A stretch of DNA of 64,000 nucleotides, taken from Escherichia coli. GTDB lineage: Bacteria > Pseudomonadota > Gammaproteobacteria > Enterobacterales > Enterobacteriaceae. The stretch is taken from assembly GCF_003334255.1 (NCBI RefSeq), contig NZ_QOWU01000012.1; one strand, 5' to 3'. Within the stretch, counting starts at the first letter, position 1, and the number at the start of each line of letters is the position of its first letter. The notes under the pieces were generated by a model. The model did no database searches and was not told the origin of the DNA. It was given only the letters and a program-made list of their open reading frames with translations. The position numbers and the translations under genes were made by a program. Below are positions 11,998-15,250 of this stretch, piece by piece.

Positions 11998-13416
11998 TTA
12001 CGCGTTTTTCAACATCCACTCAATTTCTGTTTCTGTGATGAGGCGCTCAAACTGCAACAGCTCATCATTTTTACAGGCGTGATAGACATGGCAGAAGCGT
12101 TCGCCTAAATAGCGGCGCAGGTGATCATTCTCGATAAACTCACCCAGGGCATCGCTCTGGCGAATCGGAAAGGGTAAGCCTTCCTGTTCCAGCCCGTTGC
12201 CTTCGACTTCTTCCTGCAACGGCAGCTCGTTATCAAGGCCATGCAAAATACCGGCAAAAATCGCTGCCATCACCAGATATGGGTTGGCATCGGCACCCGC
12301 CACGCGATATTCCACGCGGTGATTATGACGGTCGCCGCACGGAATACGCAGGGCGACGGTGCGGTTGTTATGGCCCCACGACGCCTGCGTCGGCACATAC
12401 ATTCCCGGCTGGAAGCGGCGATACGAGTTCACGTTTGGTGCCAGCAACGCCATCGACGACGGCATCAGGTCAATCATCCCGGCGAGCATCTTTTTCAGCA
12501 GCGGCGAATCTTCGCCTTCCGCGTCAGAAAGCACGTTCTCGCCACGATTATTTTGCATACTGATATGGATATGCATTCCGCTGCCCGCGTGCTCTTCATA
12601 CGGCTTCGCCATAAAAGTGGCGTGCATCTTATGCTTTTCTGCCATCAGACGCACCAGGCGTTTTAGTGCCAGCGCATCATCGCAGGCTTCCAGCACGTTA
12701 TCAGTATGGTAAAGGTTGATTTCAAACTGACCCGGCGAGGCCTCAGCGACCGCGCCATCTGCCGGAATCAGCTGTAACTGCGCCAGTTCATCAATATCAT
12801 TGAGCACGTCGGCGAAGTGGTTGAGGTTATCAACGGAGTAAACCTGGCTTTGTGTATTGCGGTCATCGGTGCCAGGCGCGCAGGGCGGTTGCAGATACCC
12901 TTCAGCGTCGCGCTGGCGATCCAGTAAATAGAACTCCAGCTCTACCGCTACGACCGGGAACAATCCGCGCTGGCGCAGCTGCTGCCACAGGCGGTTAAGA
13001 ACGTTCCGCGGCTCAACGTCAAAGGGAGCGCCATCTTCATCGACCATGGTCAGGAGCATCTGACCGATAAACTCTGGATCGGCGGCAGAAGGAGTTAAGG
13101 AACCGAGAACAGGAACACAGGTACGATCCGGCTCGCCCATTTCCTGACCCAGACCTGCTTCTTCTACTACGTTGCCCAGAATATCCATTGCAAATACCGA
13201 GGCCGGGAAATAACACCCTTTCTCGAGCTTCTTCAGGCTTGAAACAGGAATACGCTTTCCACGGAAGCAACCATTTAAATCGGTAAGTAAAACATCAACA
13301 TATTGCGTATTCGGGTAGCGCTCCAGGTAGCGTTTCACTTCCTGCGTAAAGGCGCTACCCCGCCTCTCTTCTGACTGCTGAACAAAGTTCTCTACTTCAA
13401 CGATATTGGTTTCCAT
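11998..13416 (-). CDS. puuA: Gamma-glutamylputrescine synthetase PuuA (glutamine synthetase family), 472 aa
   Basis: ORF track 11998..13494; start at METNIVEVENF (cat read at 13414-13416); GS-like sequence. Confidence 0.9.
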   Translation of the reverse strand: METNIVEVENFVQQSEERRGSAFTQEVKRYLERYPNTQYVDVLLTDLNGCFRGKRIPVSSLKKLEKGCYFPASVFAMDILGNVVEEAGLGQEMGEPDRTCVPVLGSLTPSAADPEFIGQMLLTMVDEDGAPFDVEPRNVLNRLWQQLRQRGLFPVVAVELEFYLLDRQRDAEGYLQPPCAPGTDDRNTQSQVYSVDNLNHFADVLNDIDELAQLQLIPADGAVAEASPGQFEINLYHTDNVLEACDDALALKRLVRLMAEKHKMHATFMAKPYEEHAGSGMHIHISMQNNRGENVLSDAEGEDSPLLKKMLAGMIDLMPSSMALLAPNVNSYRRFQPGMYVPTQASWGHNNRTVALRIPCGDRHNHRVEYRVAGADANPYLVMAAIFAGILHGLDNELPLQEEVEGNGLEQEGLPFPIRQSDALGEFIENDHLRRYLGERFCHVYHACKNDELLQFERLITETEIEWMLKNA

Positions 13417-13627
13417 GATTCTTCGCCTTTGGTTTGTTTTCCGCTCGTTATCAAAGCGTAAAATATAATGACCACCATTCGAATCTGTATGCAAACTAAA
13501 TGTTTGTCAAATATTAAATTGAGTTTGCAAAAATGAAAACCCACTGCTAGATTGAAAAAATATTGAACATAAAGGTCATTTAAAGCGCAGTAATGGCGAT
13601 AATTTAGTCCACTTTGTGAGATTGAGC

Positions 13628-14392
13628 ATGGAAAATATAATGAACAATCCGGTTATCGGTGTCGTAATGTGCAGGAACAGGCTTAAGGGTCATGCGACCC
13701 AGACTCTGCAAGAAAAGTACCTGAATGCCATCATCCATGCAGGCGGCTTGCCTATTGCGCTACCACATGCGCTGGCGGAACCGTCATTACTTGAACAACT
13801 TTTGCCGAAACTCGATGGCATTTATCTTCCTGGTAGTCCCAGCAATGTGCAGCCGCACCTATATGGTGAAAACGGCGATGAGCCTGACGCCGATCCCGGG
13901 CGTGATCTTCTGAGCATGGCGATAATTAATGCCGCACTCGAAAGGCGCATCCCCATTTTCGCCATCTGCCGGGGTTTACAAGAACTGGTGGTGGCAACCG
14001 GTGGTTCGTTGCATCGCAAGCTGTGCGAACAGCCTGAATTGCTGGAACATCGGGAAGATCCCGAACTGCCGGTGGAACAGCAATATGCACCGTCGCATGA
14101 AGTTCAGGTTGAAGAGGGGGGATTACTGTCTGCGTTGTTACCTGAATGTAGCAACTTTTGGGTAAACTCTCTACATGGACAAGGGGCGAAGGTCGTTAGC
14201 CCACGGTTGCGTGTTGAAGCTCGCTCGCCGGATGGCTTAGTTGAGGCGGTTAGCGTCATCAATCATCCTTTTGCGCTGGGCGTACAGTGGCACCCGGAAT
14301 GGAACAGTAGCGAGTACGCGCTTTCGCGTATATTGTTCGAGGGCTTTATCACCGCTTGTCAGCACCATATCGCTGAAAAACAGCGACTCTGA
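13628..14392 (+). CDS. puuD: Gamma-glutamyl-gamma-aminobutyrate hydrolase PuuD (class I glutamine amidotransferase-like)
   Basis: ORF track 13616..14392; start at MENIMNNPVIGVV; divergent from puuA. Confidence 0.9.
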   Translation: MENIMNNPVIGVVMCRNRLKGHATQTLQEKYLNAIIHAGGLPIALPHALAEPSLLEQLLPKLDGIYLPGSPSNVQPHLYGENGDEPDADPGRDLLSMAIINAALERRIPIFAICRGLQELVVATGGSLHRKLCEQPELLEHREDPELPVEQQYAPSHEVQVEEGGLLSALLPECSNFWVNSLHGQGAKVVSPRLRVEARSPDGLVEAVSVINHPFALGVQWHPEWNSSEYALSRILFEGFITACQHHIAEKQRL

Positions 14393-14418: not shown

Positions 14419-14976
14419 ATGAGTGATGAGGGACTGGCGCCAGGAAAACGCTTGTCGGAAATCCGCCAGCAGCAGGGGCTTTCACAACGTCGTGCCGCCG
14501 AACTCTCCGGGCTGACTCACAGTGCTATCAGTACGATAGAACAAGATAAAGTCAGCCCTGCCATCAGTACGCTGCAAAAGCTGCTGAAGGTGTATGGTCT
14601 GTCACTCTCGGAATTCTTTTCCGAGCCGGAAAAACCTGATGAGCCGCAGGTCGTCATTAATCAGGACGACTTAATTGAGATGGGTAGTCAGGGTGTGTCA
14701 ATGAAGCTGGTTCATAACGGTAACCCGAATCGCACGCTGGCGATGATCTTTGAAACGTACCAGCCGGGCACAACCACTGGGGAAAGAATTAAGCATCAGG
14801 GTGAGGAAATAGGCACTGTACTGGAAGGTGAAATTGTTCTGACGATTAATGGTCAGGATTACCACCTCGTCGCGGGGCAAAGTTATGCCATTAATACCGG
14901 CATCCCGCACAGTTTCAGTAATACGTCGGCAGGTATTTGCCGAATTATCAGCGCCCATACGCCCACCACGTTTTAA
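14419..14976 (+). CDS. puuR: HTH/cupin transcriptional repressor PuuR
   Basis: ORF track 185 aa; N-terminal XRE-type HTH (LSQRRAAELSGLTHSAISTIEQ). Confidence 0.9.
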   Translation: MSDEGLAPGKRLSEIRQQQGLSQRRAAELSGLTHSAISTIEQDKVSPAISTLQKLLKVYGLSLSEFFSEPEKPDEPQVVINQDDLIEMGSQGVSMKLVHNGNPNRTLAMIFETYQPGTTTGERIKHQGEEIGTVLEGEIVLTINGQDYHLVAGQSYAINTGIPHSFSNTSAGICRIISAHTPTTF

Positions 14977-15250
14977 TCTTTTTGTTCTGTAAGCCGGGTA
15001 AGCGCAATGCGCCCGGCAATCTATACACAAAATCATTCAAGTTGCATCAAGGCGGCAAGTGAGCGAATCCCGATGAGCTTACTCAGGTAAGTGATTCGGG
15101 GGAGCGAACGCAGCCAAGGCAGAGGCGGCTTGAAGGATGAAGTGTATATAAAGAATGTCGCCAGAAATAAACGGGCATACGGCCCGGGGATCTCTGCGCC
15201 CTGACGTTCACAAACTGCATATATCTGATAGACGTGAAACAGGAGTCATA

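Follow-up and report, generated by a model that had tools for sequence, protein, structure and literature searches.

We put at close to nine in ten the probability that the repeated AT-rich motif in the divergent spacer between puuA and puuD marks operators of PuuR, a repressor of the XRE-cupin type that responds to putrescine and is encoded nearby. There appear to be four such operators, here named O1 to O4, and the motif seems better read as four 20-bp imperfect palindromes with the half-site rTGKwMAWWA than as direct repeats. The repetition itself is real and not a matter of chance, while the assignment of these exact four stretches as PuuR-bound sites, O3 above all, rests on sequence analysis.

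All positions given here are those of the window, i.e. the whole 64,000-nucleotide stretch of E. coli chromosome that was analysed. Its segment 13300-13800 is matched by 4,372 of 5,426 complete E. coli genomes, and gene coordinates were taken from the RefSeq annotation of an identical E. coli locus and converted to window positions. K-12 coordinates convert to window positions by subtracting 1,345,516 from U00096.2 or 1,347,492 from U00096.3. The puuA gene, which encodes glutamate-putrescine ligase, occupies 11998-13416 on the minus strand, where it forms a group with puuP and ymjE. The puuD gene, which encodes gamma-glutamyl-GABA hydrolase, occupies 13628-14392 on the plus strand (start codon ATG at 13628-13630), in a group with puuR, puuC, puuB and puuE. 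Between the two divergent genes lies a spacer of 211 bp (13417-13627), next to puuR. The puuR gene itself (14419-14976, plus strand) is found immediately downstream of puuD and is identified as encoding an XRE-cupin repressor by its annotation and by Pfam, with an HTH_3 domain at residues 13-66 (E = 9.6e-15) and a Cupin_2 domain at residues 111-178 (E = 1e-18). Over positions 12000-14380 (2,381 bp) the sole difference between the window and K-12 MG1655 is at 13513, which is an A here and a G in MG1655. Farther into puuD, conserved blocks of the gene had an RNA fold z-score of -1.24 and no Rfam family was found there; manual inspection of these blocks for CRP, sigma-54 and NtrC-like patterns gave only a loose NtrC-like dyad, GCACC-N5-GGTG, at 13855-13868.

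The original prediction described two direct copies of the motif, one upstream of puuA and one at the puuD start. Exact matches to AAAATATAATGAMCA were indeed found at 13460-13474 (AAAATATAATGACCA, ending in GACCA) and at 13632-13646 (AAAATATAATGAACA, ending in GAACA). The first lies upstream of puuA at precisely the predicted coordinates; the second is equally exact, but had been placed at 13631-13645, one base away from its true position. This second copy had also been said to overlap the puuD start codon. As a 15-mer it does not, but begins one base past the ATG and includes the in-frame Met5 ATG (13640-13642), whereas in the 20-mer form introduced below it begins at the ATG itself. A further copy, AAAAAATATTGAACA at 13555-13569, has two mismatches to the motif and includes the string aaatattgaaca, which had correctly been proposed as an AT-rich variant between the direct copies. 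When up to two mismatches are permitted, these three sites (starting at 13460, 13555 and 13632) are the only matches on either strand of the 64 kb. Shuffled sequences have a mean of 0.36 such matches, and three were reached in 0 of 100 shuffles. An additional test presupposed no motif at all, and used 2000 dinucleotide-preserving shuffles of positions 13417-13660, whose G+C content is 34%. Of these shuffles, 0.45% contained a direct pair of 15-mers that agreed at 14 or more positions (P = 0.0045).

The idea that the copies are simple direct repeats did not hold up, as the sites behave like imperfect palindromes. We compared all pairs of 14-mers in 24 representative species, one species at a time. 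The strongest relation was inverted (10.9 of 14 matches, z = 6.9), and joined 13461-13474 with the reverse complement of 13629-13642; the best direct pair reached z = 6.0. The three clear sites (13460, 13555 and 13632) were used to build a 15-mer weight matrix, which ranked them 1st, 2nd and 3rd in the window; each of them also has a minus-strand match that is shifted by 3 nt. Because of this inverted self-similarity, and because the protein family is known to bind palindromes, we trained a 20-mer matrix on O1, O2 and O4 only and then symmetrised it (consensus ATGTTCAATATATTGAACAT). O3, which the asymmetric 15-mer matrix had failed to detect, appeared only after symmetrising. Although untrained, O3 is the next-best match in the spacer after O1, O2 and O4, and it ranks 12th among 63,981 window positions. 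The top four matches occur at the same four aligned positions in all 24 representative species, and the fifth match scores far lower in most of them. O3 is the third or fourth best match in 24 of 24 species, and in 20 of the 24 it outscores all positions in roughly 8 kb of flanking sequence. The eight half-sites of the window yield the pattern rTGKwMAWWA, with TG at positions 2-3 in seven of the eight; in O1 and O2 the left half agrees poorly with this half-site. Within the 64-kb window, matrix scans confine the PuuR-type motif to this one spacer.

The predicted operators differ in their relation to the two genes. O1 (GCGTAAAATATAATGACCAC, 13456-13475) contains the exact 15-mer at 13460-13474, and scores 21.7 with the 15-mer matrix and 20.3 with the 20-mer matrix. 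It is found 40-59 nt upstream of the puuA ATG, where it covers the predicted transcription start or -10 element of that gene. O2 (ATTGAAAAAATATTGAACAT, 13551-13570) contains the 15-mer at 13555-13569, and its scores are 23.1 and 22.0, respectively. O3 (ATGGCGATAATTTAGTCCAC, 13593-13612), the match contributed by the symmetrised matrix, falls within the puuD 5′ UTR, at +34 to +53. Its right half alternates between GTCCA and GAACA, as in the other operators, and 13 of 18 positions agree between O3 and O4 in most genera when the alignment is read by eye. O4 (ATGGAAAATATAATGAACAA, 13628-13647) contains the 15-mer at 13632-13646 and has the top score in the window with either matrix (23.3 and 23.1). 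Since it starts at the puuD ATG and extends over codons 1-7, corresponding to +69 to +88 of the puuD transcript, O4 is only partly intergenic.

These positions are highly conserved. A search with PuuR returned 80 loci in Enterobacterales, from which we selected for alignment the 59 loci, each representing a species, that have divergent puuA and puuD genes and complete N-termini. The spacer in these species is 205-239 bp long, mostly 210-215 bp, and consists of near-invariant islands with DNA between them that varies freely. These islands comprise AAATATAATGnCCAC at 13461-13475, which belongs to O1; a long block at 13497-13531; CTGCTAGATT plus AAATATTGAAC at 13543-13568, the latter being the conserved part of O2; and ATAATTTAGTCCA at 13599-13611. 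The Shine-Dalgarno sequence and the first puuD codons form further islands. From start to start, the operators are 95, 41-42 and 34-35 bp apart in nearly every one of the 59 species. Since these species, with their divergent puuA and puuD, retain the four islands and the spacing, the motif travels with puuR. Loci outside the training set, i.e. Serratia paralogues, Rahnella and Pantoea, also have high-scoring sites in the same upstream region, and the full four-site layout is seen in several of the Serratia paralogues (with spacings of 96, 41 and 36 bp) and in Pantoea.

Published work on PuuR fits this arrangement. The literature describes PuuR as binding the puuA and puuD promoter regions, and as a DNA-binding protein that is released on sensing putrescine (PMC7901475 being among the citing papers). 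Both puuAP and puuDRCBE are repressed by PuuR, and the spacer has also been described as containing FNR and ArcA sites. When tested in Corynebacterium, the puuD promoter gave a 36-fold response at full length, compared with 6.9-fold in a truncated form. The spacer has furthermore been stated to contain four PuuR DNA-binding motifs, whose locations are not given (PMC9951944); our matrix scans yield exactly four outstanding sites, in the window as well as in each of the 24 representative species. The 15-mer string turned up in none of the papers searched in full text, and the only result for a PuuR binding site, operator or box was a Rhizobium study without site sequences. No PuuR binding data from DAP-seq, SELEX or ChIP-exo were found, and the other papers that cite PuuR contain no site coordinates. 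PuuR operators of K-12 are catalogued in RegulonDB and EcoCyc. Those of the K-12 puuA-puuD region are said to have been defined by PuuR footprinting in a 2012 study by Nemoto et al., reportedly J Bacteriol 194:3437. The consensus from that study is reportedly an asymmetric 15-mer, AAAATATAATGAACA, so our palindromic reading may differ from the description of its authors. This string is identical to the window copy at 13632-13646.

The location of the operators relative to promoters is best defined for puuD. Its transcription start has been mapped experimentally (Kim et al. 2012, PMC3415461, supplementary file 2) to NC_000913.2 position 1359076 on the plus strand, which is 68 nt before puuD, equals window position 13560 and results in a 5′ UTR of 68 nt. 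An extended -10 element, TGcTAGATT (13545-13553, conserved at 1.4-1.8 bits per base), ends 7 nt before this start, and a conserved -35 element, TTGCAA (13525-13530), is found 17 bp upstream of the -10, a position that fits the mapped start. O2 covers -9 to +11 of this promoter, with the mapped start inside it. The TATAAT hexamer within the motif was also considered as a sigma-70 -10 element, and was rejected: the only mapped start in the spacer (13560) uses TAGATT at 13548-13553. The 59-species alignment shows no conserved -35 element upstream of the hexamer at 13464-13469, and the hexamer at 13636-13641 is downstream of the puuD start codon.

For puuA, two candidate promoters on the minus strand can be proposed, both of them predictions read from the sequence. 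P1 (13482-13510) would have the -35 element TTGACA (13510-13505), a 17-nt spacer, the -10 element CAGATT (13487-13482) and a start near 13475; its TTGACA, as well as A2 and T6 of its -10, are conserved. The alternative, P2, would use the -35 element TTGCAT (13494-13489), an 18-nt spacer and the -10 element CATTAT (13470-13465), with a start near 13458. Kim 2012 contains no mapped puuA start, Park 2013 lists ‘no TSS’, and we found no matching coordinates in Cappable-seq supplements. O1 would overlap the start of P1 or the -10 of P2. Operators are therefore seen to overlap core promoter elements at O2, with its mapped puuD start, and at O1 for the predicted promoters only.

The spacer contains another conserved element, which had initially been proposed as a variant of the motif. 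This element, aaatattaaatt, is present at 13509-13520, and it is conceivable, though unlikely, that four same-strand direct 15-mer repeats at 13460, 13509, 13555 and 13632 are the actual PuuR sites, with 13593-13612 being something else. Such a set would also agree with the four motifs stated for the spacer without positions (PMC9951944), all of its members are within conserved islands, and with the A allele of the window, the 15-mer matrix gives the minus strand at 13505-13519 a score of 10.5 bits. However, the 13509 element is below 4 bits on the plus strand with the 15-mer matrix derived from the other sites, its minus-strand score is only 3.8 with the usual G, and the symmetrised 20-mer matrix gives it -0.4. 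It is never among the top four matches in the 24 species, while the untrained O3 is recovered in every one of them.

Moreover, the block around 13509 already has an explanation. ChIP-seq data place an ArcA-P binding region with four direct-repeat elements at 13489-13531 on the plus strand (Park et al. 2013, PMC3798270). Listed there are a ChIP peak at puuD/puuA, a box of 18 bp with 14 bits (atgtttgtcaaatgttaa) and, within ATGCAAACTAAATGTTTGTCAAATGTTAAATTGAGTTTGCAAA at -70 to -28 of puuD, direct repeats starting from U00096.2 positions 1359008, 1359019, 1359030 and 1359041; in the same data, ArcA represses puuA 15.3-fold and puuDR 10.6-fold. This block is the most conserved part of the spacer. 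In the alignment, AAATGTT is repeated at 13498 and 13509. The ArcA-P site is made up of TGTTA-like direct repeats every 11 bp. aaatattaaatt sits on the strongest ArcA repeat (11.7 bits), over or adjoining the predicted puuA -35 hexamer. From the ArcA-P ChIP-seq block, the strength of this repeat and the -35 neighbourhood, we therefore conclude that aaatattaaatt is an ArcA repeat next to a candidate puuA -35 element and not a PuuR-type site on either strand. The initial view of the spacer as an array of PuuR operators serving the divergent puuA and puuD promoters survives in its main point, but it assigned the 13509 element wrongly and missed the fourth copy at 13593-13612.

The single difference from MG1655 falls within this same element. 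In the strongest ArcA direct repeat, 13513 is where TGTTA has its G. MG1655 and approximately 99% of E. coli read aaatGttaaatt here, and G is found in all other genera. Only 47 of 4,318 E. coli genomes, BL21 and C among them, share the A allele of the window.

A different concern applies to O4, which might be conserved for coding or translation initiation (as an AT-rich, unstructured gene start) rather than as an operator, with only the intergenic copies binding PuuR. AT-rich gene starts generally favour translation initiation, and O4 overlaps codons 1-7 of puuD, where an N-terminal M-x-(N/D)-I pattern is conserved. We nonetheless consider this explanation improbable. O4 is the best match to the motif in the whole window, it resembles O3 at most positions as described above, and its distance from O3 is fixed. 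Its codons are also unusual. All 59 species encode Ile4 of puuD by ATA, a rare codon that accounts for about 10% of the other Ile codons of the gene, and codon 3 ends in T in every species. Across puuD, the codon is also invariant in only 14 of 113 residue-invariant columns. Furthermore, all that is left of puuD in the paralogous Serratia loci is an ORF of 42 codons, in which MGNIF… is followed by a remnant of the C-terminus and the stop overlaps the start of puuR; O4 is intact at the head of this vestigial gene. As that ORF is still translationally coupled to puuR, O4 may have a role in translation even there, and its conservation could partly reflect translation-initiation needs.

Finally, the proposal that the repeats are promoter parts (TATAAT-like -10 elements or UP elements) or AT-preferring nucleoid-protein sites instead of specific repressor operators is very improbable: O1 and O4 do carry a perfect TATAAT, the region is AT-rich and a consensus scan reports TTGTGA-16-TATAAT at 13614-13641, but a promoter there would start downstream of the conserved start codon, the mapped puuD start is served by TAGATT and not by the motif hexamers, promoter-like sites are no commoner than in shuffles (1 versus 1.1 in the consensus scan), most species lose TATAAT (O4 having TATATT and O2 AATATT) yet keep the flanking TG…CA, and the literature assigns the spacer to PuuR.

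If O1 to O4 are PuuR operators, their positions suggest how repression is most likely achieved. PuuR on O2 would cover the edge of the -10 element and +1, and would thereby block initiation at puuDRCBE; its position over these elements is shown, and we infer occlusion. PuuR on O1 would lie over the predicted puuA start or -10, and could block puuAP with either candidate promoter. O3, in the puuD leader, and O4, at the start codon, probably strengthen repression, whether by cooperative binding, by looping with O2 and O1, or as roadblocks. We suggest this strengthening because the spacing is nearly fixed and because the full-length promoter responds more strongly than the truncated one. Binding of putrescine to the cupin domain would then release PuuR, in line with the literature. 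The circuit would also regulate itself, as puuR is part of the puuD operon. The conserved block at 13489-13531 is a separate input, the ArcA-P site that shuts both promoters off anaerobically.

The geometry of the sites invites a more specific, and tentative, proposal. The spacings of 95, 41-42 and 34-35 bp are held from Escherichia to Serratia while the intervening DNA drifts. It is possible, though we would not favour it on present evidence, that the four operators form one fixed-geometry complex, in which a looped assembly of several PuuR dimers wraps both promoters and the ArcA site, with the last operator in the first puuD codons. O1 and O2 are separated by about nine helical turns, and O2 and O3 by about four. 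On the other hand, neither the O2-O4 distance (76-77 bp) nor the O3-O4 distance (34-35 bp) is a whole number of helical turns, so O4 is out of phase, and a simple in-phase looping model does not include O4. If true, and if not already contained in Nemoto 2012, a fixed-geometry complex would refine the picture of independent 15-bp sites.

The predicted array does not differ in kind from the known PuuR operators of K-12, since the locus (apart from the one base that differs from MG1655) and the regulator are the same. Similar systems have also been described in P. aeruginosa, in which the XRE-cupin proteins PauR, PsdR and ErfA combine HTH_3 and cupin domains like PuuR (Trouillon et al. 2021, PMC7901475). 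These proteins are local repressors of neighbouring metabolic genes, and they bind as dimers to palindromes over core promoters at neighbouring promoters (PMC7901475). PauR, which also appears to be autoregulatory, responds to both putrescine and cadaverine. Family members do not share one binding consensus, and PauR controls 29 genes at 12 loci (PMC7901475), compared with a PuuR motif found in one spacer of the 64-kb window. For PsdR, a faster-migrating complex of the monomer type has been seen when half a site is mutated. The block at 13489-13531, in turn, is one of the ArcA-P multi-repeat sites of Park et al. 2013 (PMC3798270) and contains four direct repeats. It belongs to a separate regulator and has a motif separate from that of the PuuR array, and the window has the minority A in its strongest repeat.

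PuuR control of the puuA-puuD spacer is real, functional and already known. It was reportedly worked out in 2012, and it is in use in putrescine biosensors. What is possibly new is the palindromic reading, the strict spacing and the start-codon operator that survives the decay of puuD. The value of the analysis is correct annotation of the spacer, with PuuR operators (one of them inside the puuD reading frame), an ArcA site and the mapped puuD promoter. This annotation bears on the design of PuuR sensors, for which the full-length spacer gave the 36-fold response and the truncated one 6.9-fold. It also bears on the comparison of strains, since the strongest ArcA repeat is altered by one base in BL21 and in other B and C strains.

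Two 5′ ends mapped by Kim et al. 2012 (PMC3415461), at window positions 13876 and 14175, lie inside puuD (13628-14392, + strand) and were assigned to puuR (14419-14976, + strand), with 18 and 23 reads, respectively, versus 5 at the puuD promoter. These ends and their read counts suggest that promoters within puuD also drive puuR, without dependence on the puuD promoter that PuuR controls. The end at 13876 falls within the first of two blocks of nucleotide conservation in puuD, which span 13850-13900 (codons 75-91) and 13943-13968 (codons 106-114). Across about 20 representative Enterobacterales species both blocks are near-invariant in nucleotides, including third codon positions, and third-position information reaches 1.93 bits in codons 79-87, compared with a gene mean of 0.94. 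The two blocks are inverted copies of each other, with 15 of 18 positions shared between ATGGTGAAAACGGCGATG in the first and the reverse complement of the second, ATGGCGAAAATGGGGATG.

The blocks may constitute an internal puuR promoter or a regulator site. With regard to RNA structure, their fold z-score is only -1.24, and an Rfam search of the blocks gave no match. An out-of-frame short ORF at 13862-13912 is kept in the one other sequence compared. The blocks are absent from Serratia loci in which puuD is vestigial. Serratia marcescens (L058 among the 80 Enterobacterales loci from the PuuR search) carries a second, paralogous puuA-puuR cluster that lacks puuD, as is likewise the case at L059, L062 and L064-L075, and here a 42-codon puuD remnant, MGNIFSKAALTTDIMQHRYRPGRRPIPIFISACRPYQKEVPL, occupies positions 3876-4004 of L058. 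The remnant retains both the Shine-Dalgarno sequence and the operator at the start codon, and it overlaps puuR by ATGA. It looks like a leader ORF built from both ends of puuD.

Two of the PuuR operators, O1 (13456-13475) and O4 (13628-13647), differ between genera at position 5 of the half-site (rTGKwMAWWA), which corresponds to 13471 in O1 and 13643 in O4. Escherichia has T at this position in both operators (TGGTCATTA and TGTTCATTA), versus A in both in Klebsiella and Raoultella (TGGACATTA and TGTACATTA). Two operators of a single lineage have changed in parallel.

Outside the puuA-puuD spacer, the top match in the 64-kb window to our PuuR matrix (a symmetrised 20-mer built from O1, O2 and O4) is at 7080-7099 (ACGTTAACAATAATGACCAG, 14.8 bits), inside sapB and about 55 nt upstream of the sapC start. 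The annotation of SapBCDF as an exporter of putrescine makes its place suggestive, and this match in coding DNA may well be due to chance. The puuR-puuC spacer, where REP112a-b has been reported in the literature, contains a REP-like hairpin (14993-15017) followed by a repeat element of ERIC/IRU-like appearance (15021-15144), whose Rfam match to V_AS5 is below threshold (44.8 bits, against a gathering score of 96).

Within the puuA-puuD spacer, the core of the ArcA-P site (13489-13531) is flanked by the arms of a 12-nt inverted repeat, TGCAAACTAAAT at 13490-13501 and ATTGAGTTTGCA at 13518-13529, which are 92% complementary; the left arm is conserved in some genera only. The -35-like hexamers TTGCAT and TTGCAA, one for each divergent promoter, are set as mirror images by this repeat. 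The sole difference from MG1655 across 2.4 kb also lies in the ArcA-P site: position 13513 is A in the window and G in MG1655, and the A takes the place of the G of TGTTA within the strongest direct repeat of this ChIP-seq-mapped site. The position is G in every other genus compared. The A allele occurs in 47 of 4,318 E. coli genomes; BL21(DE3) and further B strains are among the carriers, as is strain C. In these carrier strains, the A allele might weaken anaerobic ArcA repression of the puu genes.
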